A stretch of DNA of 29,185 bases from a virus. Taxonomy: Duplodnaviria > Caudoviricetes. The notes under the pieces are model-generated. The model was not told where the DNA came from, did no database searches, and saw only the letters and a program-made list of their open reading frames with translations. A program made the position numbers and the translations under genes. The stretch spans positions 1 through 29,185 of IMG/VR virus record IMGVR_UViG_3300022666_000097; one strand, given 5' to 3'. Within the stretch, counting starts at the first letter, position 1, and every line of letters starts with the position of its first letter. Positions 3,324 to 25,200 of this stretch are shown one piece after another.

Positions 3324-4461
3324 GCCATCCAAATAAATTGCTTTCAAAACTATTATTATTAGGTTTAACAAATAAATCATGATAATGATCATAAACATAT
3401 CTTGATCCATGTTTATCAAAATCATCGAATATACTAGTTACATTCTGGATAAGATCTTTTTCTCCCAGTGCTTTCGCATATTCTGGCAAGACTTCCATAT
3501 CATCTACAAAGCATTCTATCATGCGGTTGACTTCCAAATATTGATATAAGTTGTGGAAGCTGACCAAAAGTGATGTAATTGGAGTATAATTATAAATATC
3601 TCCTATATTCATACTGGAACATACTGGACAATCACATGGCATACCAATCATAGAATGATCGCTGGATTTTTCTCCCAAGCTAACGAATTTCTTAATATCA
3701 AGCGGAAATCCATACGACATAAACTGGTAGCCTTTTGCCCAACTGCTGCTATCGAAGGTAAGAGCAGAATCATATTTGTTTGCCAACATAGATAATGATA
3801 TCATATTAGCAGGGGCACTCACTCCGAAGAAGTGACAATTATTCAGCACGGATTCTTCTCCCCTTTCTATCAAATATAGATAGGCCACTAGTTTCAAGTA
3901 TACGTTAGTACTGGGATGAATACCTAATGCCCATCCATCGAAGCTAAAATCTTTCACTACATGATACCATTGATCTATCTGATCATATGTCTTTCCATGC
4001 AAAACATTGTATAATTTAAAGTCATAATTTTGTCTATTTTCTTCGAATATTTTAAAATTCCGGCACGATTCTGACAAAGCTGCATCAAAATCCATAAAAC
4101 TAGGAGGTACATCCAAGTTCATACCGATGTCAGAGTTCCGTTCCAACCATCTCAGTATTTGAATCGCATTTAAGTCAACTGGTTTCCCCTTTCTTTCGAA
4201 TGTCATCATCTGAAAGCCGCCACTGTCTCCCAATATTATAGTATCATCGGGATACTTCATGCGACTTCGATGGTCATAATCTTCTTCATATGACAATCTA
4301 TAGTATGCATTTTGGAGAATTATATTATAATCAAAGAATGATTTTCCAGGATTAAAGAATTCAAAATTTCTGCCGGCAAATTCTTGATGTCGTAACCAAT
4401 GATACATCGTGTGGTTACAAATTGCGGGAACATAATTCGAACCTTTCGGAATTGTTTTCAT
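3313..4461 (-). CDS. dpdA: TGT/DpdA-family guanine transglycosylase, paralog A
   Basis: GDSGGFQ, MNLD, VLHG, GWALG, HFFG, TFDSSS, CDCPVC-x21-H; next to the preQ0 genes. Start at ATG 4461 (MKTIPKG) matches the paralogs. A DNA substrate is inferred. Confidence 0.82.
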   Translation of the reverse strand: MKTIPKGSNYVPAICNHTMYHWLRHQEFAGRNFEFFNPGKSFFDYNIILQNAYYRLSYEEDYDHRSRMKYPDDTIILGDSGGFQMMTFERKGKPVDLNAIQILRWLERNSDIGMNLDVPPSFMDFDAALSESCRNFKIFEENRQNYDFKLYNVLHGKTYDQIDQWYHVVKDFSFDGWALGIHPSTNVYLKLVAYLYLIERGEESVLNNCHFFGVSAPANMISLSMLANKYDSALTFDSSSWAKGYQFMSYGFPLDIKKFVSLGEKSSDHSMIGMPCDCPVCSSMNIGDIYNYTPITSLLVSFHNLYQYLEVNRMIECFVDDMEVLPEYAKALGEKDLIQNVTSIFDDFDKHGSRYVYDHYHDLFVKPNNNSFESNLFGWQNL

Positions 4462-4463
4462 TT

Positions 4464-5600
4464 CTACCAACTCCTAAATAAATTAGTTGGTTTGATTCTA
4501 TTTTCTGGTTTTGGAACAAATAATTTCTTATATTTACTATATATATATTCTGTATTATAATTATCAAAATCATTTAATATATTGACTATATCTGATATTA
4601 ATATATTTTCGTTTACTGATTTCCCGTATTGGATTAAAGCTTGCATATCATCTGCCAATGCATTTATCATTCTATTGGTTTCTATGAATTGATATAAATT
4701 ATGATATGATATTAATGATGGGGACATTGTGTCATATTTATATATTTCTTTTATGTCAGTAGACTGGCATACTGGACAATCGCATGGCAAACTTTTCATA
4801 GAATTTTTTGTTTGTCCTAATCTAGATCTATGCCTAACGTCCAATGGAAAGTAATAATCCGAAAATCTGTACCCAGTAGCCCAAGTGCTACTATCAAATG
4901 TTAATGATAGATCAAATTTTTTACTTAACATACTTAGTGCGATCATGTTATCCATGGAACTTATTCCGAAAAAATGAGTATTTTGGTATATCGACTCTTC
5001 TCCATGTTCCAATAGATATAAAAATGATAATATCTTTAAATAAGTATTCGTATGAGGCCGAATTCCTATTGCCCACCCATCAAAATCGAAATCTTTTACA
5101 TGAGAATACCAAGTTATTATGTCATTATATGATTTTCCATGCAATATATTATACAGCTTAAATATATAATTTTCTCTATTATTTTGAAATAATTCAAAAT
5201 TTTGAATAGATGTCCTTAAAGAATATTCAAAATTATCGGTGGGCGGGCTATCTAAATTCATTCCGATGTCTGCATTATTTTCCATCCATCTAAGTATTTT
5301 TATAGGATCTATATTTATACTAGTACCTTTTTTATTTGCCATCATTATTTGAAAACCGCCACTATCTCCTATCAATACCATATCATCAGGATAATTCATT
5401 CTGGACCGATGATTATTATCTTTTTCTGACGATGATATATCATATGCATTTATTAATTGCATATCATAGTCAAAGAATGAATTTCCTTTATCAAAGAATC
5501 TAAATCCTATATCATTATACATCATATTGGTCATTTGGCATTTTAAAGTATGACTAGATACCGCCGGAACATAATTCGACCCCTTTGGTATAATTTTCAT
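4464..5600 (-). CDS. dpdA: TGT/DpdA-family guanine transglycosylase, paralog B
   Basis: GDSGGFQ, MNLD, ILHG, GWAIG, HFFG, TFDSST, CDCPVC-x21-H; ATGA overlap with paralog C. Confidence 0.82.
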   Translation of the reverse strand: MKIIPKGSNYVPAVSSHTLKCQMTNMMYNDIGFRFFDKGNSFFDYDMQLINAYDISSSEKDNNHRSRMNYPDDMVLIGDSGGFQIMMANKKGTSINIDPIKILRWMENNADIGMNLDSPPTDNFEYSLRTSIQNFELFQNNRENYIFKLYNILHGKSYNDIITWYSHVKDFDFDGWAIGIRPHTNTYLKILSFLYLLEHGEESIYQNTHFFGISSMDNMIALSMLSKKFDLSLTFDSSTWATGYRFSDYYFPLDVRHRSRLGQTKNSMKSLPCDCPVCQSTDIKEIYKYDTMSPSLISYHNLYQFIETNRMINALADDMQALIQYGKSVNENILISDIVNILNDFDNYNTEYIYSKYKKLFVPKPENRIKPTNLFRSW

Positions 5601-6748
5601 ACTATTTCTCCTGATGAAATAAAAGACATCATATTGTTACCTGGATTGCTCATGTCCCGCAAGACCATACTATGCCGGAAGTTATCATAGACATGACTGA
5701 CGCCCTTTTTCTGGATTTGATCAATAATTATTCTGGCTATCCTAACAGTCTTTTCTTCACCAACCGACTTAGCATATTCCATAAATACGATATCATCGGA
5801 TACCATATTGTTTATCATTCTATTTACTTCTATGTACTGGTATAGATCATGCAGAAGAAGGGATACATAAGCACCTGGACTTTCTTGGGAATACAAATCA
5901 TCGATCTCTAACCGTCGGCAAACCGGACATCTACAAGGAATTGATTGCATGGTCTTCTTTGCATCTCTTCCGAATTCAATACCATATCGTATATCTTTCG
6001 GGAAATAAAACCGTCGGTATCTCATTCCGGTTATATAACTGCTAGAATCGAAAGTCATCGAACCTCCGAATTCATGACTAAGCATAGCAAGTACTAGCAT
6101 ATTCTTGATACCGCTTACCCCGAATAAATGAAAGTTGGTTTCCCAATGGGCAGCATTATTTTCCCTAAGGAACATATAACCGATTATTTGCAAATAGATA
6201 TTATCTGCCGGTCTAGCCCCAAAAGCCCATCCATCGAATTCATAATCTTTCACACCAGAATACCACTTGATCATCTCGGGTAATGTTTTTCCATGCAGGA
6301 CATTATATAATTTAAAGTCATAATTTTCTCTATTATTCTGAAATACGGTGAAATTTTCTTGACTCGTTTTCAAAGACTTATCAAAATTTGTCCAAGGAGG
6401 ACTGTCCAGATTCATTCCGATGTCTGCATTATTTTCCATCCAACGGAGTATCTGAAGTGGTGTTATGCCTATGTCTTGGCCACCTAATTGTGCCTTTGCG
6501 ATCTGAAATCCTCCGCTGTCTGCTATCAGACAATATTCTTTCGGATATCCATATGCTTCCCTAAAATCTGGCGTCTGTTTATCGATCTCATAAGGAACCG
6601 TCGTTAAAAGATATGGATATTGAAAAACAGATTCCGGAGTAAAGAATTTACTATCCTTTCCTTTAAAAATGAAGTCCTTTTCTTTCCAGCGGGTTTCTGC
6701 CGTACTGACCGCTGGAACAAAAGTAGCTTGTTTTGGTAACACAATCAT
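5597..6748 (-). CDS. dpdA: TGT/DpdA-family guanine transglycosylase, paralog C
   Basis: ADSGGFQ, MNLD, VLHG, GWAFG, HLFG, TFDSSS, CRCPVC-x22-H. Start at ATG 6748 (MIVLPKQATFVPAVS) from paralog alignment and promoter position. Confidence 0.82.
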   Translation of the reverse strand: MIVLPKQATFVPAVSTAETRWKEKDFIFKGKDSKFFTPESVFQYPYLLTTVPYEIDKQTPDFREAYGYPKEYCLIADSGGFQIAKAQLGGQDIGITPLQILRWMENNADIGMNLDSPPWTNFDKSLKTSQENFTVFQNNRENYDFKLYNVLHGKTLPEMIKWYSGVKDYEFDGWAFGARPADNIYLQIIGYMFLRENNAAHWETNFHLFGVSGIKNMLVLAMLSHEFGGSMTFDSSSYITGMRYRRFYFPKDIRYGIEFGRDAKKTMQSIPCRCPVCRRLEIDDLYSQESPGAYVSLLLHDLYQYIEVNRMINNMVSDDIVFMEYAKSVGEEKTVRIARIIIDQIQKKGVSHVYDNFRHSMVLRDMSNPGNNMMSFISSGEIV

Positions 6749-6769
6749 AAAATTATAGTGATTACGATA

Positions 6770-6784
6770 GTATATAAAGGTTTT
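6770..6784 (-). promoter_or_regulatory. Archaeal BRE/TATA promoter of the transglycosylase operon (probably leaderless)
   Basis: AAAACCTTTATATAC ends about 21 nt before ATG 6748; no RBS visible. Confidence 0.65.
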
Positions 6785-6823
6785 GGTAACCAAAAATATA
6801 AAAGAAAAGGAGGATAATTCTAT

Positions 6824-7477
6824 TTAGATATATCCCAGTGGTTCGCCCCCTTCCACGAACTGGACATGGATCTGTCCGGCATTGATCAGGTGCGGGAAAT
6901 CCTTCCCTGCTGAGATCAACCGATTCCGAACACTATTCACGGCAGGTTCATCCATACCAGAAGCTCGCAAAGTATTGGCAATAGCTCCCGTGATGGCAAA
7001 TCGATTTCTCTTCATCTCGGAAATATCAAGAACCGGCTTTCCTACCGATTCTTCCGGAACTGTCCGGATCTCCCGGAGTTCAGCAACGGTAGGTGGTTTC
7101 ATAATCACCACTTCTTTTTTCGGCATTTCTGGTGCCTTGATATCCATGACCTGAGCCGCGGGAAGATCCTGAATCAAGACCAATGCCTTATCGGGTTCTG
7201 GTTCAGGCGTCCTGATCTGCTGACCAGATTCATCAACGATGACTTCGACCAATGCTGCCTTATCGGTATGCAGAACCTTCCTCATGTTGTGGCGGAATGT
7301 ATTGCTGAAACTCAACTTCGGAACTTCAGCAATGACATTAGAGGGGAGAGGATCCCCGACATGCACTGCAATGTGACTCGTCTTCGGCGTTCCTTTTCTG
7401 CTGAGTCCCTTGTCAACCTGATAATACTGCACTTCTCTTCCGCATATCTTGCACTTATCTGCTTTTTCGCCTTCCAT
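6824..7477 (-). CDS. Two-domain hypothetical protein with CxxC..H N-domain and Pro/Glu-rich linker; paralog of 7495..7893
   Basis: CKICG..AVHVG; C-domain NRFAITGAIANTLRASGMDE; GAGG RBS; visibly more GC-rich than its neighbours. Confidence 0.8.
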   Translation of the reverse strand: MEGEKADKCKICGREVQYYQVDKGLSRKGTPKTSHIAVHVGDPLPSNVIAEVPKLSFSNTFRHNMRKVLHTDKAALVEVIVDESGQQIRTPEPEPDKALVLIQDLPAAQVMDIKAPEMPKKEVVIMKPPTVAELREIRTVPEESVGKPVLDISEMKRNRFAITGAIANTLRASGMDEPAVNSVRNRLISAGKDFPHLINAGQIHVQFVEGGEPLGYI

Positions 7478-7494
7478 AAATCTCGCCTCATATC

Positions 7495-7893
7495 TTAATG
7501 ATTTCTGATGACTGTCATGCCGTACTTGGCAGCGGTTTCGATGTTGGTATCGTAGTTGCTGCCTCTCGCGAACATCTCTTTTCTGACTTCGTTCGCGGTC
7601 TTTTCATCCATGCCACCGTCTTTCATGACATTGATGATGTCGGTGATCATGGTGAACCGATTCATTCCGGTTGCATCGAAGACCATCTTGGCTTCATTCC
7701 CATCATGGGGAATCATTTCCCGCAGGTTCTTGCGGTAGGTCGCGCTAATCTCATGGATGTCAATCATGACGGCGTCTGTTGGCATTTCTCCTTCATGGAA
7801 TGCTCTCTTGATTGTTCGACCTTCCTTATTGATCTTAGCATATACGACAGGCTTTCCGCAAACCGGACATGTGTTTTTCTTATTGTACATCAT
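7495..7893 (-). CDS. Hypothetical protein; compact paralog of 6824..7477
   Basis: CPVCG..AFHEG; NRFTMITDIINVMKDGGMDE; GAGGTGG RBS. Confidence 0.8.
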   Translation of the reverse strand: MMYNKKNTCPVCGKPVVYAKINKEGRTIKRAFHEGEMPTDAVMIDIHEISATYRKNLREMIPHDGNEAKMVFDATGMNRFTMITDIINVMKDGGMDEKTANEVRKEMFARGSNYDTNIETAAKYGMTVIRNH

Positions 7894-7944
7894 TTCTTAT
7901 CCACCTCAATTCATTTCTTGACAATACCATATATCCCGTTATGC

Positions 7945-7961
7945 CTATATAAAGGTTGTGG
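7945..7961 (-). promoter_or_regulatory. Archaeal BRE/TATA promoter
   Basis: CCACAACCTTTATATAG on minus, upstream of 7893. Confidence 0.6.
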
Positions 7962-7984
7962 AAAAATCGACCATAATCAAGTAA

Positions 7985-8073
7985 AATTTATAAAATAAAT
8001 AAAAAATAAACATCCCCCGACAAAATAATAAAAACAAAAATTAAACAATGTCGTGAATTTATTTAGATTCACG
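7985..8073 (-). terminator. Hairpin plus long U-rich tract ending the clamp/clamp-loader operon
   Basis: Inverted repeat CGTGAAT (8052-8058) / ATTCACG (8067-8073) followed on minus by several T-runs. Confidence 0.45.
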
Positions 8074-8086
8074 GACGTACGGAAAT

Positions 8087-8554
8087 CTAGAAACTGAATA
8101 AGCTGCCTTGCCCCTTGATTGATTTCTTTTCCTTCTTTTTTATTTTGGTATTTATTTCTGGCAATTTTAATAATTTTCTTTCCTTGTTTTCTAATCCCAA
8201 AGCATCAGCCACTTCACTCCAGTCTATATATTCTAGCATCCTATGGTTATGATCGAATTCTTGAAGAGACCAACCATAATATAGCATGATCAAAACCTTT
8301 TTTAATTCCATGATTTTATCTGTTTTTTCTTTGCTTCCTTTAGGATACTTCATGAATGCATTTTTATCCCGAATCCCAACCAATAGCATCTTGCATGCCA
8401 TATCCGGCGGAATAAAGAATAATCTCTTATTTACTTCGGAACACCAGTCTAGATCCACCAGACTCGCGCTAGACCATCGCAAAAGAGGATAGATGAATTT
8501 AGTATCTACCTTCCCGATGTCACCGGATTTGAGGTTTTTAAAGCTTTCAAACAC
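8087..8554 (-). CDS. Probable clamp-loader small subunit, T4 gp62-like
   Basis: Directly after the RFC ATPase; GTG 8554 after GGAGG. Pattern YPLLRWSS..EVN..FMKYPK..YYGWS recalls gp62; ends QGSLFSF. Confidence 0.6.
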   Translation of the reverse strand: MFESFKNLKSGDIGKVDTKFIYPLLRWSSASLVDLDWCSEVNKRLFFIPPDMACKMLLVGIRDKNAFMKYPKGSKEKTDKIMELKKVLIMLYYGWSLQEFDHNHRMLEYIDWSEVADALGLENKERKLLKLPEINTKIKKKEKKSIKGQGSLFSF

Positions 8555-8556: not shown

Positions 8557-9432
8557 TTATGCCTCCTTCATTAATTGGGCTAACATCGCTTCGATCAAGA
8601 TTTCTTTTATCGCGACCTGGCTCATCCATTGGTATTTATCAGACAAAATACATATAAATGTTTGATATTTTTCTGGCGGCAATCTTTCATAAGCTATGTT
8701 ACTTAAGTCCCGACAGAATTGATCATAATCTGGACATTCATCCAGTAATGTTTGTCTAGCTAATATAAAATTCTTTTCACAAATTAACGAAAATATCTTT
8801 TCTGCCAAATTTATTTCGTCATGGAACTTTGATAATAATACTCCATCTCGATGTTCCTCTATGGAATTGATGGCAGATCTTAAATCACTACCAGTTCTGG
8901 CAACGATCTTATCAAGAGCTTCTTTTTCATATGGTATCTTTTCTTGCACACAAATATATTCCAGTCGATGCAATATATCTTCTCGCGGGATATTTCCGAA
9001 TTTTATTAGGACACATCTAGATTTTAATGGTTCTATTATTTTGTTCAAATAATTACAAGTCAATATAAATCTTGTATTTCTGGAATAAGTCTCCATCGTA
9101 TTGCGAAGGGCCGTCTGAGCATCTCCCGTTAGGTGGTCAGCTTCATCAAGGAATACTATCTTGATATTTCCATCTTTACTGCGATTACTGGCAAATTCTT
9201 TGACTTTATCTCGGACGGTATCAATTCCGCGTTCGCTGGATGCATTCAATGTTAGTACATCACACCCTAATTGTCGGATTATGATCTTGGCCAGGGTTGT
9301 TTTTCCAGTTCCTGCTGTTCCGTGCAACAATAGATGCGGCAACGAATCATCAATTTCTATTTTAGCATCGAATCCCAAAAGATCATCAAGTGTTTTGGGT
9401 CGATATTTTTCGGTAAGTAGTGGCAAATTCAT
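8557..9432 (-). CDS. rfcS: Clamp-loader AAA+ ATPase (RFC small subunit / gp44-like)
   Basis: EKYRP, Walker A GTAGTGKTT, LNASSERGID, Walker B FLDEAD, AQTALR, SRC arginine finger. Confidence 0.95.
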   Translation of the reverse strand: MNLPLLTEKYRPKTLDDLLGFDAKIEIDDSLPHLLLHGTAGTGKTTLAKIIIRQLGCDVLTLNASSERGIDTVRDKVKEFASNRSKDGNIKIVFLDEADHLTGDAQTALRNTMETYSRNTRFILTCNYLNKIIEPLKSRCVLIKFGNIPREDILHRLEYICVQEKIPYEKEALDKIVARTGSDLRSAINSIEEHRDGVLLSKFHDEINLAEKIFSLICEKNFILARQTLLDECPDYDQFCRDLSNIAYERLPPEKYQTFICILSDKYQWMSQVAIKEILIEAMLAQLMKEA

Positions 9433-9459
9433 CTCTCCCAAAAAATTAAAAACTTGGAT

Positions 9460-10179
9460 TTATTCTTCTTCGGACTCTGCTTCCGTATCTATGATCGGAG
9501 ATATCATCCATTTGATTGTGCTGTCAGGATCCCGGCTAGTAATCAATATCGGATAATTATCATTAAAAGCAACATTTAATTTACCTGACATGACCGTTAT
9601 AAATTCCAAAAATGTTGATCCAAACCGGGCAACGACATTCTTGTAATCGACTGCAGTCTTTGCCGTCAATTGGTTAAAGTTGTCTTCGCCTGTCGTTATG
9701 TAGAGAATATTGTCCTTGACTTCGGCAATCACACCGACCTTCCCGGTGCCCAAAATCTGGGTATTCTTTTTGACAGCTGCCCAAATTCTAGAATCAAGTT
9801 CGAAACCACCATCATGACCTAGTGTTGGCAATTCTGGTAGATCGCATTCTAAATATGCTTCGTCCGGCATGATGAGTTTGCCTTCATTGCCCTCGGAACT
9901 CAAAATAAAGACATTATCTCGCTTTGATAATTCTACATTTCCATTCATGTTATTTAGGACACTTATGAGAGTAGTCATGTTCTTGATTGGAATATTCATC
10001 TGGCTGTAATCTATAAAATTTGTTGCCTTCAGGATACCAGTAACTGCGCCCGCATTTGTAACATCCTTCACGGTTAATGTCAATCCATCGGGACCGAATT
10101 TCAGAATGCCATCTGATATATTTCCATTTATCGTTACCTTTTTTATAAAGTCACTTAATGTCTTGCTATTTATTTTCAA
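9460..10179 (-). CDS. DNA sliding clamp (PCNA/gp45-like)
   Basis: 239 aa directly upstream of the clamp loader; LKFGPDGLTLTVKD N-terminal pattern and YPILI..WMISP C-terminal pattern; TTG start after AGGAG. Confidence 0.82.
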   Translation of the reverse strand: MKINSKTLSDFIKKVTINGNISDGILKFGPDGLTLTVKDVTNAGAVTGILKATNFIDYSQMNIPIKNMTTLISVLNNMNGNVELSKRDNVFILSSEGNEGKLIMPDEAYLECDLPELPTLGHDGGFELDSRIWAAVKKNTQILGTGKVGVIAEVKDNILYITTGEDNFNQLTAKTAVDYKNVVARFGSTFLEFITVMSGKLNVAFNDNYPILITSRDPDSTIKWMISPIIDTEAESEEE

Positions 10180-10697: not shown

Positions 10698-11084
10698 TTA
10701 AGATAAGATACTAATTGTTCCGGATAGTACCTTATCAATTACCACATACTCGGGTGCCATGATGCACATTAAATATTGATGAAATAGTATATCAAATACG
10801 AAAGCACTCGACAATCCCATGAAAATAACTGCTATTATAGACCATATAGCTGCTCCTTCTCTTCCCATACCAGATCTATCGGGTTGATAATTTTTATACC
10901 ACTTCCAACAATATTTAGCAGTGATCACAGCCATTATGATCCCAAACAGCATTGCTATCATTCCAGCAATTCCGTCGACTACCGTACCTTTTACAGCAAT
11001 TTCATAACTGTACGAGGTTACATTTTTGGTACCATTTACTACTGAACCTATCATCTCGGGTGTCAAATCCATACTATTCCTCAT
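10698..11084 (-). CDS. Membrane protein with two predicted TM helices
   Basis: Two hydrophobic stretches (GIAGMIAMLFGIIMAVITA; AIWSIIAVIFMGLSSAFVF); start overlaps the queE stop. Confidence 0.7.
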   Translation of the reverse strand: MRNSMDLTPEMIGSVVNGTKNVTSYSYEIAVKGTVVDGIAGMIAMLFGIIMAVITAKYCWKWYKNYQPDRSGMGREGAAIWSIIAVIFMGLSSAFVFDILFHQYLMCIMAPEYVVIDKVLSGTISILS

Positions 11085-11740
11085 TACTTTCCTTTGTTTC
11101 TAATATGAAGACGATCACAATAATTCGTTCCCAATCGCATCGCGATCTTCCAGGTCATCGGTCCACTAATATCAAGTTGGTGTCGTTCTGCGCCTCCCGG
11201 CATCAGCCAAATTTTGTTTGCAGGAAGTTCATACAATTCGATACATTCTTTTATTTCGCTCTGGAGATACATCCAAGGTTGGGTTCCTATCACAAACTTG
11301 AAATGAACATTATCAAGATCTTTCCAATTACTGAAATAATCCCGGCGATCCTGTGGAGATGGTATCGAATCCTTCTTAGGACTGATCACCAAATATCGGA
11401 ACATTTCCAAGTATTCGGAATCATTATTCTTTATGAGTCCATTCGTTTCAATATCAATATATCTAGTATTGATACAGGTCATGACTTCTTTCCAGTCATG
11501 AAGAAAAGGTTCTCCTCCGGTAATTACCACCCGGCAATTATCATTCTGTCGTGAAAGCATTTCATTTATGCGAAAGATTAATCTGTCATTGGTCATCATT
11601 TCATGCCGACTATGATTGGTGTCACAATTACTGCAATGCAAATTACAGCCAGAACTCCTAACAAATATGACTGGTTGTCCCATAGCAGGACCTTCTCCCT
11701 GTATGGAATAGAATATTTCGTTTATCGGAATTTCAGACAT
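11084..11740 (-). CDS. queE: 7-carboxy-7-deazaguanine synthase QueE (radical SAM)
   Basis: EIFYSIQGEG, CNLHCSNCD, ITGGEP, IETNG, SPK, RLH. Start at 11740 (or 11746); the longer ORF crosses its own promoter. Confidence 0.93.
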   Translation of the reverse strand: MSEIPINEIFYSIQGEGPAMGQPVIFVRSSGCNLHCSNCDTNHSRHEMMTNDRLIFRINEMLSRQNDNCRVVITGGEPFLHDWKEVMTCINTRYIDIETNGLIKNNDSEYLEMFRYLVISPKKDSIPSPQDRRDYFSNWKDLDNVHFKFVIGTQPWMYLQSEIKECIELYELPANKIWLMPGGAERHQLDISGPMTWKIAMRLGTNYCDRLHIRNKGK

Positions 11741-11759
11741 AATCATTGATTTGAATTCG

Positions 11760-11794
11760 GTATATATAAAGCTTTTGTAGAAACAAATATATAC
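11760..11794. promoter_or_regulatory. Divergent archaeal promoters (queE on minus, small-ORF cluster on plus)
   Basis: AAAAGCTTTATATATAC on minus (11760-11776) and GAAACAAATATATAC on plus (11780-11794), each about 20-23 nt from an ATG. Confidence 0.55.
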
Positions 11795-11816
11795 CATGGA
11801 AGTCCTATGATAGACC

Positions 11817-11945
11817 ATGAAACCAAAAATGAAGCCAAAGAAAACATGCAAATTTTGCGGCCATCCTATAAAATCGCCATATGGCAGACAAGGAAATCTG
11901 TGTTCCAAAAGATGTCATGATGCTATAAGAAGAGAAGAAATGTAA
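11817..11945 (+). CDS. 42-aa Zn-finger microprotein (CxxC..CxxxC)
   Basis: Not in track: MKPKMKPKKTCKFCGHPIKSPYGRQGNLCSKRCHDAIRREEM. Confidence 0.6.
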   Translation: MKPKMKPKKTCKFCGHPIKSPYGRQGNLCSKRCHDAIRREEM

Positions 11946-12310: not shown

Positions 12311-12925
12311 TTAAAATTCAATATAATCATTCAAAAATTCTTCATATCCTGTTTTCAATTCAGATGCAGTAAAGTATTTCAAGATAGCTTTCTGATCGGG
12401 ATTTCTGTCCAAGAAACTATCTAAATATACAAATGCTACTTGCGGTCTTTCTCTTAATGCATGCCAATATGCACCGGCTTGTTTGATATGCGTATCATAA
12501 GGAACTCCTGTCTTGATATCGATAAGAGTAAGGTCACCGTCTATCCGGCATAACAAATCAAGACGACCGGCATATCTAGGTTCATGGCAAAATAATGCCG
12601 TTTCTACGCATATCGGACTTATATTTAGATCGAGTTGTTCCCACATATCAAGACATCGCCTGATTCGTTCTATTACTTCATCCCGTTTGACTCCATATAT
12701 ACCGTCCCGGGGCAATGGAATCAATTCCCGGGAATACCTCCTTAGAATGTGATAATGAACCAGAGTTCCTATGGACATTGATGGAGTTGTTCTAATAGGC
12801 TTTCCTTCATTCTTCTTTTTTCCGATGATTGTAGTCACCGAAGGATACTTATCATCGCCCAGGCAATAGAATCTGCCTTGTTTTGATTCATCGACTGTAA
12901 ATCTGGAATTGTTCTTTATTATCAT
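12311..12925 (-). CDS. PD-(D/E)XK nuclease (RecB/Cas4-like viral exonuclease)
   Basis: YPSVTTI, GTLVH, VE, YAGRLD, IDIKT, Q..AY. Confidence 0.88.
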   Translation of the reverse strand: MIIKNNSRFTVDESKQGRFYCLGDDKYPSVTTIIGKKKNEGKPIRTTPSMSIGTLVHYHILRRYSRELIPLPRDGIYGVKRDEVIERIRRCLDMWEQLDLNISPICVETALFCHEPRYAGRLDLLCRIDGDLTLIDIKTGVPYDTHIKQAGAYWHALRERPQVAFVYLDSFLDRNPDQKAILKYFTASELKTGYEEFLNDYIEF

Positions 12926-13438: not shown

Positions 13439-13551
13439 ATGATTACCTTTTCTTTAGAATCATGGTGAATTTCATCCAATACCTTCTTTTCCCAATTCGA
13501 ACCAGTTCCGCAAAACATACAAACAGTATTAGCTGTTTCCAAAATAATCAT
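13423..13551 (-). CDS. 42-aa Cys-containing microprotein
   Basis: Not in track: MIILETANTVCMFCG..ICGKE; ATGA overlap with the upstream ORF. Confidence 0.4.
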   Translation of the reverse strand: MIILETANTVCMFCGTGSNWEKKVLDEIHHDSKEKVIICGKE

Positions 13552-13694
13552 CTCCCGAATTCGAACAAATTAGATTCACCACTATCCATGAACGTCATAC
13601 ATATGGGACCATATCCACGGCGTCTGCTATCGATATCATGCAGCAATCGACCACATCTCCTGCACCTGATATGCAAAAAATTATTGGTTTCCAT
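13548..13694 (-). CDS. 48-aa DUF6011-like Zn-finger protein
   Basis: Not in track: METNNFLHIRCRRCGRLLHDIDSRRRGYGPICMTFMDSGESNLFEFGR; same CxxCGR.L...S..RG.GPIC motif as 28798..29130. Confidence 0.75.
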   Translation of the reverse strand: METNNFLHIRCRRCGRLLHDIDSRRRGYGPICMTFMDSGESNLFEFGR

Positions 13695-15388: not shown

Positions 15389-15895
15389 TTATTCGGCAAC
15401 ATCTACTATTTCTGGCTTTTCTAATAAATATGGAAATTCTACTGGTGTTCGACTATTCACATTAGTATAGCAACATCCATTTTTGTCTCTAAATACACGA
15501 CCTTCAATATTATAACATTCGTAACTTCCGTCAGGCATCAATTCCTTAAAGATTTGACTGCATCGATTATTTTGCCAACATGTATCACTGATTTGGTTCC
15601 ATTCATCGTTTGTGCCTCTTAATGGACGAAGCGGTTCATACTTTGCCAATGTGCTAAATAAGTCTATACAGAACGGAGCCGATAATCCCGAATGTCCTTG
15701 TGTTGCAAAAACTTTTACCAATTCGAGTACATGATTCGCCATCATTTTATTCATTTCATCGCCATCAAAGTAACCAGCAAATTCTAGTTCTCGGTTGGCA
15801 TGTTTATATAATGATGATTCTTTGGGATCATGATATTCTTCTTTTGGAACATATTCATAATTATCATCGGTGTATGTTAATTCTTCTTGTATCAT
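15389..15895 (-). CDS. Hypothetical protein of viral type
   Basis: Clean ORF in operon; the F..QGHSG.SA and WQN.RCS..FK pattern resembles uncharacterised phage proteins. Confidence 0.75.
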   Translation of the reverse strand: MIQEELTYTDDNYEYVPKEEYHDPKESSLYKHANRELEFAGYFDGDEMNKMMANHVLELVKVFATQGHSGLSAPFCIDLFSTLAKYEPLRPLRGTNDEWNQISDTCWQNNRCSQIFKELMPDGSYECYNIEGRVFRDKNGCCYTNVNSRTPVEFPYLLEKPEIVDVAE

Positions 15896-16385: not shown

Positions 16386-16976
16386 TCACCTGGATGGAAT
16401 TACATCTTTGATACCATTCTGATCAGTAACTACATTAACCAAAGATCCTACTGGATAACCTTCGGACTGCAACTTTTTGGAACTTCCATTCTTTTCTATC
16501 AAGGTATAAGCACCTTTACAATCAATATCATTATTTCGGAGTGTATCAAATATTGCTCGCAAAGTTCCGCCGGTGCTTACAACATCATCAACTATTATTA
16601 CTGTATCTCCTGATTTTAGACCATTTATATACATTACGTTCTTGGAATATCCCGTTTGTTGATTTAATTCAAGTTCACCCGGCAACCCATACTTGCGCTT
16701 TCTGATTACTAACCATGGTACATCAGTAATGTATGATAACATGGTAGCTATAGGAAGTCCCATTGCTTCCGGTGCTAAAATATAATCACACCACTTGAAC
16801 ATATCGGGATCGATGCCGTACATCATTTCTGTACAAACATCCTTCAGGAACAGGGAATCAATAGGAAGCACTCCATCTGACAGGGAATAACAAAAATAAG
16901 GATAATCTCCCTTCCAGACGATGGGAGATCCCTTAATCGAATCAATCAATCTATTTATGGTTTGCATAAAAGTCAC
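16386..16976 (-). CDS. hpt: Archaeal-type purine (hypoxanthine/guanine) phosphoribosyltransferase
   Basis: YPYF..SDG, EAMGLP, RKRKYGLPGE, TGYSK, PRPP loop IVDDVVSTGGT. Confidence 0.88.
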   Translation of the reverse strand: MTFMQTINRLIDSIKGSPIVWKGDYPYFCYSLSDGVLPIDSLFLKDVCTEMMYGIDPDMFKWCDYILAPEAMGLPIATMLSYITDVPWLVIRKRKYGLPGELELNQQTGYSKNVMYINGLKSGDTVIIVDDVVSTGGTLRAIFDTLRNNDIDCKGAYTLIEKNGSSKKLQSEGYPVGSLVNVVTDQNGIKDVIPSR

Positions 16977-18461: not shown

Positions 18462-19514
18462 TTATATAGTAGTTGCAACACAAAGCTGATCTATTCCGAT
18501 AGCCCTGATATTGATTGCCGCGTTGATATCCCTGTCATGGATAGCCCCACATTTAGGACATTTCCATTCACGAATATTCAAGGACATCTTTTCTTCCTTA
18601 TGACCACAGCAATGACAAATCTTTGATGAAGGTTCCCATTGACCTATTTCTATTATCGTCTTGCCTGACCATTCTGCTTTGTACTTGATTTGCCTGATAA
18701 ATTCCGACCATCCCGCATCACTTATTGATTTAGCTAAATGATGATTCTTTAACATGCCGGATATGTTAAGTGATTCCAAGACAATAGCATCATATTCATC
18801 AACCAATTTCCGAGATAGCTTGTGCTGGAAGTCTAATCGCTGATTGGCTATCTTTTCATGCTGCTTGGCAACCTTCAATCGGGCCTTTTCTGAATTCTTG
18901 GAACCTTTCTGCTTTCTGCTGAATCTTTTCTGGAGAACCACTAATCGTTTTTCGGATTCTCTATAAGGCTGGATGCCATCTATCTTATCACCTTTCGATG
19001 TGGTGATATAAGATAACAATCCTACATCTATACCTATGATGTTTTCATTGGACACTGGTTTTGAAATCGGTTTTTCCAATCCATCATCCACTTGAAAAGA
19101 TACATAATACTTCCCACTCTTGGTTTTCGATATGGTAGTAGTTTTTATCTTTCCGATAATTGGTCTATGTAACCGAATTTCAATATCCCTTATTTTAGTT
19201 ACCGAAAGCATACATGATTTAGTATCTAACTTAACATTTTCGCCTTGAAATTGGATGGATTGATTATCTCTTAACTTCTTTGGAGTCGGATAACCTCTTC
19301 TGTTGCCATTCGTATCCGATTTGAAGAAGTTCTTAAATGCGGTTCCAAGATTTCGCAAACTAGAACGAAGAATCTTATCTGGCACCTCGTTTAACCATGC
19401 CTGTTCATCCTTGAGTCCAAGCATTGATTTCAATCCATCGGGTAACTTGTCTGCCTTTCTGGTTTTGGCCGACGTGAGCAGCACGCTACATTTGGTAGCA
19501 TCAATCCTAAACAA
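18462..19514 (-). CDS. tnpB: TnpB RNA-guided endonuclease body lacking the N-terminal HTH (possible pseudogene fragment)
   Basis: WLNEV..L..AFKNFF, RuvC-I GIDVG, RuvC-II VLE, Zn finger CHCC..CPKC, RuvC-III HDRDINAAINI; weak TTG start. Confidence 0.92.
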   Translation of the reverse strand: MFRIDATKCSVLLTSAKTRKADKLPDGLKSMLGLKDEQAWLNEVPDKILRSSLRNLGTAFKNFFKSDTNGNRRGYPTPKKLRDNQSIQFQGENVKLDTKSCMLSVTKIRDIEIRLHRPIIGKIKTTTISKTKSGKYYVSFQVDDGLEKPISKPVSNENIIGIDVGLLSYITTSKGDKIDGIQPYRESEKRLVVLQKRFSRKQKGSKNSEKARLKVAKQHEKIANQRLDFQHKLSRKLVDEYDAIVLESLNISGMLKNHHLAKSISDAGWSEFIRQIKYKAEWSGKTIIEIGQWEPSSKICHCCGHKEEKMSLNIREWKCPKCGAIHDRDINAAINIRAIGIDQLCVATTI

Positions 19515-19528: not shown

Positions 19529-20026
19529 CTAGTAAGCCGCTGCCTGAGCAACGTGGCTATCATAGTATTGAAGGCCTGTTTTCAGGTCCATTAGAAATAA
19601 TTCCTTTTTGAAGTGTATATCAAGTAGGTCGTTATTGCAGCTAATTTTCGCTAGCATATCTAGTGTTCCTGCATAAGGTGGATTTTTATTAAATAGCGAC
19701 GTTTCTACAAAAAACGGCTGAATACTTAAATGTAAGTCATTCCACATTTTTATGCAGCGATTTATTCTGCCATAAACTTCTTCCCTTGGTATATTCCAGA
19801 TAGGATTACACGACACTGGTAATACATTCTTAGAATAACGACCAAGTATTTTTTTGTGGACAATGGTTCCTATGTGGGCACTAGGCCCAGGTCCCTTTGA
19901 TTTACCGGTATTCTTTTTGTGTCCAATAATTGTAGTTACAGAAGGATATGGTATTTCGTCTTTAAAATAAAATCGACCATTTGGCGTTTGCTTCCTGTAA
20001 TACGCAGATTTATCATTAACAAGCAT
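19529..20026 (-). pseudogene. PD-(D/E)XK nuclease, paralog of 12311..12925, C-terminally truncated
   Basis: YPSVTTIIG, GTIVH, VET, YAGTLD, MDLKT, QAAAY then TAG where the paralog has TGG and about 50 further residues. Confidence 0.7.
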
Positions 20027-20034
20027 TGTATCAT

Positions 20035-20169: not shown

Positions 20170-20173
20170 AGTA

Positions 20174-20956
20174 TCATCTTATAAATTTTTCTAATGGTAT
20201 TGGTATTTCTTTTATTCTTTTATTTGCTATATCGACATATTTTTGTTCTTTTTCTATGCCAATAAAGTGTCTATTTGTGTTTATGCAAGCTATTGCGGTT
20301 GTTCCTGATCCAATGCAGTTATCAAGAACCAGATCGCCCTCGTTGGTGTAGGTCTTGATGAGATATTCGAAGAGGGCGACGGGCTTTTGCGTGGGATGTA
20401 GTCGTTTTGTGTGATTACATTCTGCCATTGATGAATTAAATTTTAGAACAGAAATCGGATATTTTTCAGTAAAAACTTTGTTTGTTGTTATTTCTTTGGA
20501 AGCAAATTGATTATGACTTTCTGGGTTTCGTATTGTTTTAAATTTCCAGTTACTTGCATCTAGTGGCATTGATCTCTTCTGTTTTTGCGGATTATATTTA
20601 ATCGCATTGTTTCCAAAGACTAAAATATCTTCATGTGCTTTCAATGGTTTTATATTTGCCAATTGAAAATCGGAACCATATCCTTTATCCCAACATAGTG
20701 AATATTTAAACATTTTTAGATTATTTATTACTACCATACTTGTAAACGGTTGGCTTGCCGTTAGCACAATCGCACTCCGGTCCTTAATCAGTCTCTTATA
20801 TTCCTTCCAAAGAGGCTCAAAAGGAATGACATGATCCCACTTGCAGGCGGTTGTTCCATAAGGGAGATCACATAAAATCATGTCTATTGACTTATCGGGA
20901 ATTAATGGCATTAATTCTAAACAATCCCCTTGATGTATTCTATCTATTTCTAACAT
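20174..20956 (-). CDS. DNA amino-methyltransferase (N6-adenine/N4-cytosine, beta class), apparently orphan
   Basis: GDCLELM, catalytic DLPY, HPTQKP, SAM motif LDNCIGSGTT, IGIE; start at ATG 20956. Confidence 0.92.
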   Translation of the reverse strand: MLEIDRIHQGDCLELMPLIPDKSIDMILCDLPYGTTACKWDHVIPFEPLWKEYKRLIKDRSAIVLTASQPFTSMVVINNLKMFKYSLCWDKGYGSDFQLANIKPLKAHEDILVFGNNAIKYNPQKQKRSMPLDASNWKFKTIRNPESHNQFASKEITTNKVFTEKYPISVLKFNSSMAECNHTKRLHPTQKPVALFEYLIKTYTNEGDLVLDNCIGSGTTAIACINTNRHFIGIEKEQKYVDIANKRIKEIPIPLEKFIR

Positions 20957-20960
20957 ATTA

Positions 20961-21116
20961 TCATTTCCTATAGTGGTATTTTTGTATTGCCATAATTGAC
21001 CATAAATTCCAGACATATCTAGCGGCCCCAAAGCATTTAACCAAGGTCCGCTGTTGATCTTCGGTTGGATATATCCGAAACTTATAAGCCCGCATCATTC
21101 TTTTCTTAATCTCCAT
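20961..21116 (-). CDS. tnpB: Stand-alone TnpB N-terminal HTH fragment (HTH_OrfB_IS605-like), 51 aa
   Basis: Not in track: MEIKKRMMRAYKFRIYPTEDQQRTLVKCFGAARYVWNLWSIMAIQKYHYRK; the AYKFRIYPT..Q..L...FG..RYVWN signature is typical of TnpB N-termini. Confidence 0.88.
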   Translation of the reverse strand: MEIKKRMMRAYKFRIYPTEDQQRTLVKCFGAARYVWNLWSIMAIQKYHYRK

Positions 21117-21152
21117 TTCCTGTCTTGATAGAAATAGAATAATCGCATTCTA

Positions 21153-21194
21153 GTATTTAAACGTTTTGGTAAATAGAAATCTATTTATATAACC
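21153..21194. promoter_or_regulatory. Divergent archaeal promoters
   Basis: CCAAAACGTTTAAATAC on minus (21153-21169) and GAAATCTATTTATATAACC on plus (21176-21194). Confidence 0.6.
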
Positions 21195-21212
21195 AATGCC
21201 TATCATCATGTA

Positions 21213-21422
21213 ATGAATCCGAAATTTGCTAGACTAGGCAATGATGAAGAATCCCTGTTGAATATTCTTCCCGACAAACCATTTATGACTCGGGATGTTT
21301 CCGAGAAATATGGTACCCAAAGAACTGTTCGCATACTAGCAAGTTTAGAAATAAAAGGTCGAGTAAAGTATGTCGAAATGACCGGCGAACAAAAAAGATA
21401 TAAATTATGGGAAAAGATCTGA
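21213..21422 (+). CDS. Small winged-helix-like DNA-binding protein
   Basis: LLNIL..P..TRDV..TVRILASLEIKGRV pattern; promoter upstream. Confidence 0.65.
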   Translation: MNPKFARLGNDEESLLNILPDKPFMTRDVSEKYGTQRTVRILASLEIKGRVKYVEMTGEQKRYKLWEKI

Positions 21423-21427
21423 TTGCC

Positions 21428-21553
21428 ATGAGACCTAACAAGAAAACCCGGGAAAAGGGAGTTAGACGAACTCGTCGGGACCCCATAGGATATGATCGGA
21501 TAACTTTAAAGACAATATCAGAATTGAAGAAAGAATTGCAGGATGTCGAATAA
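21428..21553 (+). CDS. 41-aa basic microprotein
   Basis: Not in track: MRPNKKTREKGVRRTRR..QDVE; TAATG overlap with the next gene. Confidence 0.45.
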   Translation: MRPNKKTREKGVRRTRRDPIGYDRITLKTISELKKELQDVE

Positions 21554-21906
21554 TGCGAATGTGGAACGTATATCCGGGATTTATGTGCCGCCAACATCTC
21601 CTCGGCGAACATAGAGAAATCCATACCATTGTTGGAATGATGCAAAAAGGAAGAAAAATATCGGGAACCAAATACATTACAAACAGACTCATAGAAATTC
21701 ATTCCCTTGATGCAAGACATCAAGAATTAATACGAGAAATGCTAAGTCGTGGTTATCATCACAATTCACCATTTCCGCACGATCTAGTATTATGGAGAGA
21801 AGGTAACATCGATCCCGATAAAAATATACTGGAATTGATGGATAGATGTCCTGAATGCCGAAAACGAATTATATCATATTATCAAAAATATGATATAGTC
21901 CCATAA
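21553..21906 (+). CDS. Pyrimidine-dimer DNA glycosylase / T4 endonuclease V-like family protein
   Basis: MRMW.V.P....RQHLLGEHREIH, RHQELIREMLSRGYHHNSP, C-terminal CPEC. Confidence 0.8.
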   Translation: MRMWNVYPGFMCRQHLLGEHREIHTIVGMMQKGRKISGTKYITNRLIEIHSLDARHQELIREMLSRGYHHNSPFPHDLVLWREGNIDPDKNILELMDRCPECRKRIISYYQKYDIVP

Positions 21907-21907
21907 T

Positions 21908-22048
21908 TTATTTTATGTGCATGATATTTCCGGATCTGAATTTTATAATTATTTCTTCTATACTATCTCCGTCGCATTGAATAATTTCAGTAAATTGTTG
22001 CTTATCTTGTCGTGATAATGATAGTCTGCGTTCTACTTCTTCGGCCAC
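21908..22048 (-). CDS. 46-aa hypothetical protein
   Basis: Not in track; AGGTGA RBS then GTG, MAEEVERRLSLS..MHIK. Confidence 0.45.
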   Translation of the reverse strand: MAEEVERRLSLSRQDKQQFTEIIQCDGDSIEEIIIKFRSGNIMHIK

Positions 22049-22053
22049 TTATA

Positions 22054-22179
22054 TCACCTTATCATTATTCGAAATGATCGTTTCAAATGATTATATTCTT
22101 TCAATGGAACTAGTACCATATTATCTTTAACATTTTTAATTATAATTTCATATCCCAATAATTTGATTGTTCTTGCCAT
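22054..22179 (-). CDS. 41-aa hypothetical protein
   Basis: Not in track; GGTGA RBS; MARTIKLLGYEIIIK resembles the N-terminus of 20035..20169. Confidence 0.45.
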   Translation of the reverse strand: MARTIKLLGYEIIIKNVKDNMVLVPLKEYNHLKRSFRIMIR

Positions 22180-22228
22180 ACAAAATCACCGGATCTGATT
22201 TGAATCACTTTTCGATATTTCCATAATT

Positions 22229-25200
22229 TTATTTAAATGCAAATAATCCCACTTTTTGTTTCCTTGGTTTGATTACTTCTTTTGGTTTCTCGACTTCTTC
22301 ATATCCAAATAATGATTCTTGGTCGAGAATCTTTTTTCCAGTATTTATATCTATTCCTATAGCTTCGAAAAGTCTTTCCAATGGCGGTTTCAATTGATTT
22401 TCGATATACCACTCAGAATCTATCCGGCCGTTACCATGATTTCGTATCCATTCCGGAGTATCAACCAATTCACTAATGTTACCTCTGGATGCACCTGGTA
22501 ATGCCATATACATAGCACGGTCTCCCAAACCATATGGTTGTTCGCCCCGGGATTGCATCTTCTTGCATACGGTAACATGAGGCTGTACATTCTTATATTT
22601 ATTTAAGTCACCGACCTTTCGGCTTAGAATTAATTTATTGGCAAGGTCATCATTTGTTCTTATGTCCTTCAAGCCGCGAACTTCTTCTATAACAGAATTA
22701 GTAAGGTTCCATGCCCCAGTTACATCACCTTCCTGCAAGACCATATGGAGAACCTTGTCCATGGTTTCGCCGACTAATTTAACCCAATCTCGCCGGCGGA
22801 CTTCAATACCCCTGTATTTCATTTTGTCTTTCCATCTATCTTTTGATGGTTCAAAGATCCACATGGCATATCGTTTCTTTTCGAAAATAATTGCTCTTTC
22901 TGCCCAGCATTCAAAATCGATTTCCATAGGTGGAGGAAGTTTCGTTAGCATAGCATCATGAATAATTTTTGCCTTTTCCTTACCTTCGTCTGGTGTTTTT
23001 ATATTATTCAATTTTATAAATACACTATCTGTATTATGTAATAATATTTGCCCACAACTATCAACAAACATATGATCATTATCAACAGTTATATCATAAA
23101 CATAACCATCATATTCTTCTTCTATTATCTTTGTTGATACTTGGTTGTCATCATGAGAATATGTTTCCCGTAGTCTATATTCGCCTTTCGATTGATTATA
23201 AGAAAGGCTATATTTTTTGTTCATCATATTCAATAACAGAGTTAAATCACTTATTAGTTCCAATGAAAGGCTGCTATATGAAATCCTTCCTTTTTTATCA
23301 ATACTTCCATCACCTTTAAGCATATTTTCATATATTATTTGTTGATAGTGGGTGTCTATATTGAAAACAAAATCAGGCAATCTTTTATTTCGACAACCTT
23401 GCCCACAAAGAGCCGAAAAAAATGCGCATGTAAATTGATTTCCAATTCTCAATGATAACGTATTATCTTCATATTCATGATCCTTATAATACTTTAATTC
23501 TTTGTTAGTTCTTAGTATATTGGGATATATCATATTGGTTACTAAACTAAAATAATCATCTCGTAATTGTCTTAACCATTCTTCATCACCGCAAGATATA
23601 CTAAATATGGCATTTCCACAAGAATTTGTCAAGTGATTAGACGCAGCACCTTCGGAAACGAATGCTCCCATCAATCTACATAATTTTTCTAAATCATTCC
23701 CCGATACATATCGTTTTATACTTACTTCATTCTTTCTATTTGTCCATCCAAATGAAATTCTCTTACCATTATCCACTAGCTTAAAACATACTATTTTTTC
23801 CCTCTTTTTATATACAATACCATATTTATAATGTTTAATATATTTATATAAATCAATGATATTGTTCGAATCATGATCTATGTTTTCTATAATACTAGCA
23901 ATTTTCCTTTTCCCTATTATATCAGTTGGTTTTGTTTCAATTAATCTATCATCCAAATATGTCATTATTGAATGATCTTCGGTTACTCTAGTTTCTCCAT
24001 ATTTCTGAATAACACGATATATTCGTTTGGAATTTTTATGCCTCATCACACATCTAATAGAATTCCATACTGGATTAAGATCGGTATCGAATGATAATGC
24101 AAAATATTCTCCTTTGCATACCGCATATTCTTTTTCGCCATGCAAAATTATACCGTTCGAAGATAATTCATCAAATAATGATTCCATATTTCGTATAACA
24201 ATATTTCCATCGGATTTTTTTAGTGTAACAAATCGATCAGCAGTTACACTGTCTCCCCCAACTACCCTACAATCTACCAATGATTCAGCAGTTTCTTTAG
24301 TCAATGCAATTGCCATTCTGCCAACTGATGTTACTGAATTTGCGAGCCTAGGTTCATATAAACGGCCACTCGGAGCCCCAGTATACCCATAAAATGAATT
24401 CAATAAAATCTTGACTGCATATTGTTGATTATCGTAGAATTCTTTCTCGTCTTGGTCATCGGTTTCCTTCATCATCTTCTTCAATGCGACTCTTTTATTA
24501 TATAACCGAGTTAAGATCCTAGGCATTATTCCTTCATAGACAGAATGATCAGAATATCTTACGTTATTCGGAGCTAGAATCGTCTTAATTCCGACATTTT
24601 CGTCATCGATGATAGATGACCAACATATATTGAACGCCCTTATAGCCGAAGGATAAAGACTCTTATAGTCCATTACGATAAGTTTTTCCTGGAGTCCTCT
24701 TTCTGGTTCAAAAACTGTAGCTCCCTCTACTGATTCTCCCATTTGTTTTTTTCGTGTTTTCAATGGCCATAATCTATCTTCTTTATAGAATTCTTTCAAC
24801 AATAATGATTCTATCCGGCGAGATTGTCCACCATTGATAACTTCATGCAATAACAATCCTGATTCTTTACTGATACTAATATATCGATCTATTAATTTTA
24901 ATTGGTTTATTATATCTTGTAAAAGATCTGCATCCCTGACAGCATAATCTATGAATTCTTGAAGTTCTGATTCACTTCCTTCCAGCCATATATGCCGCAT
25001 CTGACTAGCTTTGATATCCAACTTAGGACGATTCAATAATTCCTTGGATACATTTTCCAAGCTGTAACTATTCAAAGAATAATTATTTTTGATAGCTTCC
25101 AGTAAATCGATTGATACCCGTCCTATAATATTGACTTCTCGCTTGCTTCCGAATTCTTTAATAACAAACGGCGATCCATCGCGCCCAAAATTATTACATA

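Follow-up and report, generated by a model that had tools for sequence, protein, structure and literature searches.

Putative sliding-clamp docking tails shared by DpdA-like transglycosylases and replication proteins of an uncultured tailed virus

DNA polymerases and loader-associated subunits are textbook clients of sliding clamps. Here, we describe a short C-terminal peptide that replication proteins share with tRNA-guanine transglycosylase (TGT) homologs on the IMG/VR virus record IMGVR_UViG_3300022666_000097 (Duplodnaviria; Caudoviricetes), and we compare it with the closest described systems. According to the accessible text of PMC2988020, the T4 proteins gp43, gp55, and gp33 carry highly similar, freely exchangeable C-terminal clamp-binding motifs, which are read by the phage's own trimeric clamp, itself loaded by a gp44/62-type loader. 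The accessible part of PMC3504372 places PCNA-interacting protein (PIP) boxes mostly at the extreme terminus of a protein, and in archaeal partners mainly at the extreme C-terminus; it also quotes QL(S/D)LF as a beta-clamp consensus and reports a QL(S/D)LF-like form bound by one Sulfolobus PCNA. The viral DpdA systems (DpdA1-4), as presented in the available text of Hutinet 2019 (PMC6884629) and Hutinet 2023 (PMC10516641), combine a TGT catalytic domain that lacks tRNA-binding domains with neighboring genes for FolE, QueD, QueE, and QueC. The available text of PMC10516641 describes 7-deazaguanine insertion by DpdA as a post-replication event and leaves unexplained how DpdA locates and covers the whole genome; the terms "clamp" and "PCNA" have no match in the available text of either source. 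Our literature search, which lay outside subscription journals, found nothing linking DpdA, 7-deazaguanine insertion, or a transglycosylase PIP box to a sliding clamp.

The window (the whole stretch of DNA analysed, 29,185 bases) is the complete record of the genome and represents a fragment of an uncultured tailed-virus-like genome; homologs of its proteins were found on contigs of up to about 140 kb. All of its plausible genes lie on the minus strand, and we identified them with Pfam, PHROGs, and NCBIfam. The family B DNA polymerase (PolB; 22229..25945, minus strand, 1238 aa, with an intein; Pfam DNA_pol_B, E 3.9e-82, plus exonuclease and intein matches) carries QESLFGY at 22301-22321 and then a terminal KVGLFAF at 22235-22255, the two tandem motifs lying about 22 residues apart. 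The small protein encoded after the clamp loader (8087..8554, minus strand, about 155 aa) has QGSLFSF at 8090-8110 as its final 7 aa, behind a lysine-rich linker. The three TGT paralogs, A (3313..4470, 385 aa), B (4464..5600, 378 aa), and C (5597..6793, 398 aa), all on the minus strand, have ESNLFGW at 3325-3345, 3 aa short of the stop codon; PTNLFRSW at 4467-4490, as the final 8 aa; and a weaker NNMMSF at 5621-5638, 7 aa short of the stop codon. Finally, a 48-aa DUF6011 zinc ribbon (13548..13694, minus strand; Pfam DUF6011, E 6.8e-12) has ESNLFEF at 13557-13577, 2 aa short of its stop codon. Translation thus recovered every peptide that a first-pass annotation of this sequence had listed, each at its reported position on the minus strand. 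An aliphatic residue followed three positions on by an aromatic one, within a variable terminal segment, is found in PolB (twice), the small protein, TGT A, and the zinc ribbon; the spacing is one residue longer in TGT B, and TGT C has M..F. We propose, with a probability of roughly 0.65, that these L-F-x-aromatic tails are putative clamp-docking motifs of the PIP or T4 type that would tether the DpdA-like transglycosylases to a PCNA-like clamp encoded by the virus.

We quantified the C-terminal placement of the motif in 46 minus-strand open reading frames (ORFs) chosen by hand, a few short ones of which are perhaps spurious. The pattern LFx[FWY] occurs 8 times in the 9,071 residues of these ORFs; four of these occurrences are no more than 3 residues from a C-terminus, and in PolB another is found 23 residues before the end. 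With one more residue permitted to take in paralog B (LFx{1,2}[FWY]), the pattern is present in the last 10 aa of 5 of the 46 ORFs against 0.22 expected (binomial P 3e-6), compared with 40 of 8197 interior sliding windows and 0 of 46 N-termini. None of 2000 random-end trials reached five (maximum 4), and 4 of 176 plus-strand frames end with the pattern. Because the pattern was defined after the data had been seen, the binomial P is generous, and the fair, independent test is therefore conservation in relatives. Two other C-terminal candidates were rejected. The LFADW of the XPD-like helicase (543 aa), 9 aa from its stop codon, lies inside the Helicase_C_2 match (residues 392-536) and was dropped for that reason. 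The "PLEKF" proposed earlier as a weak variant in the N6/N4 DNA methylase (20174-21031, minus strand, 285 aa, assigned by family match) is merely L..F and lacks homolog support, with no homolog found by BLAST in loci L001-L021 (later loci were not tabulated); the window methylase therefore has no convincing tail.

Tail conservation in homologs, on which the first-pass annotation had staked its proposal beforehand, was observed across five protein families. All 33 PolB homologs (53-99% identity over the last 239 residues) have a terminal [LI]Fx[FW] no more than 7 residues from the stop codon, and 32 of the 33 have a second motif 27-36 aa upstream, with a lysine/proline-rich spacer that varies freely among homologs. 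Given that both copies are kept in 32 of 33 polymerases, a single polymerase might occupy two pockets of the clamp or pass one on. The PolB intein spans about residues 627-971 and shows traces of LAGLIDADG motifs; it is absent from most homologs (801-866 aa) and present in four of about 1233-1242 aa. Homologs of the small protein after the loader (42-100% identity) end exactly in L[FL]xF in 11 of 11 viral loci, preceded by a lysine-rich linker of variable sequence, and further copies in metagenome loci end in the same way.

The start of this small protein was set at GTG 8554 by alignment with homologs of 152-159 aa, the longest ORF reaching 8629; the GTG is 7 nt behind AAGGAGG and comes directly after the loader stop codon. 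We presume that it is a clamp-loader accessory subunit, a role that fits its position after the loader, its size, and its clamp-type tail, and we refer to it below as the small subunit. The label "gp62-like," which it had been given in the first pass, is a positional guess that no sequence method supports, and we rejected gp62 homology. The protein has no match in Pfam, PHROGs, NCBIfam, or PDB sequences. With six homologs as queries, Pfam showed nothing relevant to gp62 or Phage_clamp_A at a threshold as loose as E<=10; the top PDB profile hit, at E 0.07, is an unrelated protein. In the Atlas, a hit of 0.88 leads to a cluster with Phage_clamp_A (PF16790) in 34% of its members; we treat it as a lead only.

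The tail is modular, in that it also ends the zinc ribbon in four lineages and a helicase-methylase fusion in one relative. Zinc-ribbon homologs in three other lineages have VQTDLF[AQ][FY] near their ends, with the endings VQTDLFAFETERD or VQTDLFQYEVKDDT. These DUF6011 proteins of 48-63 aa with a clamp-type tail (the window, L010:1118-1270, L012:56-211, and L027:368-559) may be small DNA- or clamp-associated factors; a second DUF6011 protein of the window (28798-29130) has no such tail. At L044:1962-4241 (plus strand), a 759-aa fusion of an SNF2-type helicase and an N6/N4 DNA methylase ends in DSKSLFDFCDQKL, so that the tail is also found on a DNA-modifying enzyme of another kind. A 121-aa protein without a Pfam match ends in PGTLFVW in five loci (L015:16457-16822, L033, L036, L047, and L060) and may be a further client of the same docking site.

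Because the families that keep the tail without exception are the polymerase and the protein after the loader, both expected clamp holders, and because T4 gp43, gp55, and gp33 and terminal PIP boxes provide precedents, we regard the tail as the putative clamp-docking peptide of this virus group. The simplest reading is then that the TGT paralogs, the zinc ribbon, and, in one relative, the SNF2-helicase/DNA-methylase fusion are further putative clamp clients. As in T4, a polymerase and non-replicative proteins have near-identical short hydrophobic end peptides behind variable, probably unstructured linkers, and the trimeric clamp and gp44/62-type loader of T4 (PMC2988020, accessible text) have counterparts in a loader that matches phrog_168 and a clamp fold that matches T4-type clamps. 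Unlike T4, where the extra clients are transcription factors, the extra clients here would be DNA base-exchange enzymes and a zinc ribbon; in addition, the clamp is nearer to archaeal PCNA by profile, the tails are not markedly acidic, and PolB has two motifs. The likeness to PIP boxes lies in a short, terminal linear motif with an aliphatic residue and an aromatic one three positions on, in the glutamine of QGSLFSF, QESLFGY, and the KQxxIFxF of relatives, and in the presence of a PCNA-fold clamp. Some relatives' tails stop at L-F, like the QL(S/D)LF form in the accessible part of PMC3504372.

The three transglycosylases were assigned from modest family matches and invariant residues. Paralog A matches Pfam TGT at E 2.8e-7 (NCBIfam tgt_general and TgtA both below cutoff), paralog B at E 3.8e-9, with 52% identity to paralog A, and paralog C at E 4.3e-5, which is below cutoff (TgtA, E 1.6e-12). 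Across 36 homologs including A, B, and C, the invariant columns are DSGGxQ, D237, and C276/C278/C281/H303 (CxCPxC..H); we take DSGGxQ and the later aspartate to be the catalytic residues and C-x-C-P-x-C...H to be the zinc-binding residues of TGT. Against the 582-aa archaeosine tRNA-guanine transglycosylase 1iq8, the family profile aligns with the catalytic part alone (E 1.5e-12), and the window proteins, at about 380 aa, are without the tRNA-binding domains of 1iq8. The preQ0 pathway genes nearby on the minus strand make up a complete set: QueC (1615-2298; Pfam QueC, E 1.6e-63), FolE (2295-2900; Pfam GTP_cyclohydroI, E 6.7e-48), QueD (2843-3250; Pfam PTPS, E 2e-23), and a QueE-like radical SAM enzyme (11084..11908) that is syntenic in relatives and matches NCBIfam QueE models at E 2e-19 to 1.7e-13, all below cutoff. 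Judged by their sequences, A, B, and C thus have the DpdA pattern of a catalytic barrel without tRNA-binding domains, with FolE, QueD, QueE, and QueC nearby. They differ from the known DpdA systems in being three paralogs in a row, in having no match in PHROGs, and in their low identity to cultured-phage TGTs. The cultured-phage TGTs, from jumbo phages, share only 21-29% identity with TGT A and were dropped as comparators; the best match, the TGT of Vibrio phage vB_VcorM_GR11A, was set aside because it has 529 aa and a different architecture.

Single-sequence scans of IMG/VR returned near-identical contigs only, and an alignment query was needed there. The TGT homologs considered number 79, paralogs B and C included. 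The pattern [LIM][FW]x{1,2}[FWY] is present in the last 20 residues of 27 of the 79, compared with 36 of 1370 interior windows of the same proteins (2.6%) and with a mean of 3.3 matches (maximum 9) in 500 shuffles of the tails. We then considered the last 30 residues of 68 full-length homologs, leaving out the fragments P0017 and P0025 and the nine most distant hits (P0071-P0079), and allowed a weaker form, defined as N-[LIM]-x-x-hydrophobic or aliphatic-x-x-aromatic-hydrophobic. Twenty-six of these homologs have the strict form and 23 the weaker one (49/68 strict or weak). When the last 30 residues are left out of tree building, the motif turns up in most clades; between it and the stop codon lie 0 to about 17 residues, and the motif is kept while the linker sequence varies. 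Some distant homologs have KQxxIFxF, that is, with the glutamine. The tail of paralog C, noted at the outset as a weak variant, can be regarded as a conserved form since its clade keeps N-[MIL]-x-S-aromatic (RNMFSY, SNLWSF, NNISSWF, KNINSYF, and ANMNSF). One relative has, upstream of its intact TGT gene, another that is broken into three ORFs (105, 103, and 195 aa; L010:8675-9752; L011:5242-6319); this resembles a paralog in decay, and its final piece retains the ending FKNLSGIK.

Tail variants look matched within several single loci, as judged by eye and without a statistical test. In locus L039, PolB has GLFSFEK, the small subunit NLFDFT, and the TGT NLFRYI. The small subunit was not found in the other three loci with matched tails, where the PolB and TGT tails are QQVKSIFDF and KQRGIWDY in L054, VKNIFDFQNGK and KQVGIFNF in L017, and RNKLF and KRGLF, each running directly into the stop codon, in L021.

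Several observations weigh against a docking role for the TGT tails. Compared with the PIP consensus Q-x-x-aliphatic-x-x-aromatic-aromatic (PMC3504372, accessible part), only QGSLFSF and QESLFGY have the glutamine in the window, and it is missing from TGTs A, B, and C and from the window zinc ribbon; no tail has an aromatic residue at PIP position 8, and phenylalanine directly follows the aliphatic residue instead. Nineteen of the 68 full-length TGT homologs match neither form, three of them having lysine-rich, acidic ends, although several of the 19 still end in related peptides. The TGT homologs are related, and the tail counts are therefore not independent events. Matching within loci is not universal: several relatives have TGT tails (NLSAIL, NLNGIK, and NLSKFK) unlike the LFxF of their own polymerase and small subunit, as in G002 (PolB GLFSFS, small subunit TLLDF, TGT NLSAIL), and in G003 the three tails are GLFSFT, TLFEF, and NNISSWF. 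Only a short linker of about 11 residues follows a conserved helix ahead of the TGT motif, which would allow some of the tail to pack against its own enzyme. Finally, DNA rather than tRNA is the likely TGT substrate, and this view is itself drawn from gene context and the tail.

The short linker and the TGT tails that do not resemble those of the polymerase would suit an explanation without shared function, in which the TGT C-terminal segment belongs to the enzyme's own fold or to a dimer interface and the likeness results from composition and chance. In an AT-rich genome such as this one, F, L, and N are frequent residues, and the plus-strand frames that end with the pattern point the same way. 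We nevertheless consider this explanation highly improbable, given the enrichment over interior windows and shuffled tails, the persistence of the motif while stop distance and linker vary, the occurrence of the same peptide at the ends of four other unrelated families, and the matched variants within single loci. The departures from the canonical PIP box could also mean that the shared peptide docks elsewhere or serves another purpose, with the loader, a helicase, a single-strand-binding protein, a replication compartment, or a chaperone as its target, or as a protease tag, and its presence on the zinc ribbon and on the 121-aa protein would fit such a role. Only a small chance should be given to this alternative: the motif occurs without exception in the polymerase and the loader-associated subunit, for which terminal clamp docking is established (PMC2988020 and PMC3504372, accessible text), and the conserved gene block contains no other candidate hub.

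The protein at 9460..10179 (minus strand, 239 aa, with an acidic C-terminal end) is a PCNA-fold clamp. On its own, the protein shows only a slight resemblance to PCNA (E 0.06) and has no Pfam match. A profile search found 476 relatives, from which we built an alignment of 138 sequences. Among these 138 family members, 19 match the beta-clamp C-terminal domain in Pfam, 11 match PCNA_N, and 4 match PCNA_C, and the family profile matches archaeal PCNAs over the full length at E 4e-23 to 1e-20. A first structural model from 20 sequences (predicted local distance difference test [pLDDT] 62.7, template modeling [TM] score about 0.38) was replaced by an AlphaFold2 model from the 138-sequence alignment, which has a pLDDT of 96.6 and a predicted TM score of 0.92. 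Foldseek comparisons of the model gave TM scores of 0.70-0.81 with PCNAs and 0.74-0.81 with viral PCNAs and T4-type clamps. The identification of this gene as a sliding clamp in the first-pass annotation is thus well founded.

The clamp gene adjoins an RFC/gp44-like AAA+ clamp loader (8557..9441, minus strand, 294 aa), which matches the Pfam AAA, DNA_pol3_delta2, and RFC lid domains and phrog_168 (clamp loader; E 4e-71). In relatives, the order QueE, clamp, loader, small subunit, TGT(s), and QueC forms a conserved block, with the QueE-like gene at its upstream end and the genes for clamp, loader, and small subunit immediately ahead of the TGT gene(s). Of 17 distinct loci that extend 6 kb or more upstream of the TGT, 15 contain a clamp homolog, several of these loci being near-duplicates of one lineage; the two without one are the most distant TGT-like loci. 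In L027 (4853-6745), the loader homolog has 630 aa compared with the usual length of about 290 aa, and it may carry an intein or another insertion.

The tails might bind a clamp, yet the host's (a bacterial beta clamp or an archaeal PCNA) instead of or besides the viral one, in which case modification would follow DNA carrying the host clamp and would have no built-in restriction to viral DNA. Tails of the form Q-x-[SD]-L-F, namely the window's QGSLF and QESLF and the QTDLF of relatives, do resemble the QL(S/D)LF consensus of beta clamps (PMC3504372, accessible part), and since archaeal PCNAs are the nearest matches of the clamp profile, a PCNA of the host might offer the same pocket. We regard this alternative as unlikely, since the virus has its own clamp, loader, and small subunit, the small subunit, which is expected to act on the viral clamp, carries the tail, and 15 of 17 loci show linkage between the genes for clamp and TGT. 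It bears nonetheless on the earlier proposal that clamp tethering would restrict base exchange to viral DNA and so provide self/non-self targeting, which we do not accept. A host clamp could equally take such tails, or the viral loader may place clamps on host DNA, and in either case the tether would not discriminate viral DNA.

If the TGT tails dock on the viral clamp, the loader and the small subunit would place the trimeric clamp on primer-template junctions, where PolB would grip it by a single tail or by both. Any pockets of the ring still free, or clamps that stay on the DNA once the fork has passed, would be contested by the TGT paralogs and the zinc-ribbon protein. On fresh duplex DNA, near replication in time and space, guanine would be swapped for a preQ0-derived 7-deazaguanine, and the tether would raise local concentration and coverage. 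As clamp clients, the transglycosylases would therefore act on DNA, at or behind the fork, with the tether aiding genome coverage, and to this extent the earlier argument that a clamp tether favors DNA over tRNA as the substrate holds at the level of inference. Eukaryotes have PCNA-tethered DNA modifiers such as DNMT1, a maintenance methyltransferase, and UNG2, a uracil-DNA glycosylase, which are coupled to the fork by a short PCNA-binding peptide. Those are other enzymes from another domain of life with other motif positions, and the analogy is functional only. A broader view, to which we give somewhat less than even odds, is that 7-deazaguanine insertion by viral DpdA is co-replicative, that the TGT has acquired the clamp peptide of its own polymerase across many unrelated viral lineages, and that the clamp serves as a toolbelt for up to three paralogs and for other DNA modifiers, such as the helicase-methylase fusion, just behind the fork.

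Several other genes of the window may be connected with DNA modification or defense. Two proteins encoded between the small subunit and TGT C (6824-7477 and 7495-7893, minus strand) have N-terminal CxxC zinc-ribbon-like starts and no family match; relatives (L008 and L012 among others) have homologs of both with 23-53% identity, and the two may belong to the modification module. A purine phosphoribosyltransferase (16386-16976, minus strand) scores 192 bits with the NCBIfam adenine phosphoribosyltransferase subfamily and 189 bits with the archaeal hypoxanthine/guanine phosphoribosyltransferase; as a speculation, it could return guanine freed by base exchange toward GTP, the precursor of preQ0. 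A Tad3-family protein (15389-15895, minus strand; Pfam E 6.7e-38), an inhibitor of type I Thoeris, places a counter-defense gene beside the DNA-modification genes. The window also encodes nucleases and a TnpB (18462-19514, minus strand) with OrfB_IS605 and Cas12f1-like TNB domains. The TnpB gene adjoins that of a 165-aa PD-(D/E)XK exonuclease (19529-20026), which is a paralog, at 44% identity, of a 204-aa exonuclease at 12311-12925. No tRNA genes were found in the 29-kb window.

Overall, these data suggest that what is new here is the class of client, the docking principle itself being known. The shared C-terminal motif is real, enriched, and conserved in homologs, and the docking interpretation that we place on it leads to a testable prediction: the tail peptides should bind the clamp, and tail mutants should lose the modification. 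The tail also offers a practical marker for separating DNA-acting from tRNA-acting TGT homologs in metagenomes. If the docking interpretation is correct, the tail would be the mechanism that puts the transglycosylase on newly replicated DNA, and it would add a new class of clients to the sliding-clamp toolbelt, beside the late-transcription factors of T4. If insertion is moreover co-replicative, this would explain the very high guanine replacement in some viruses.

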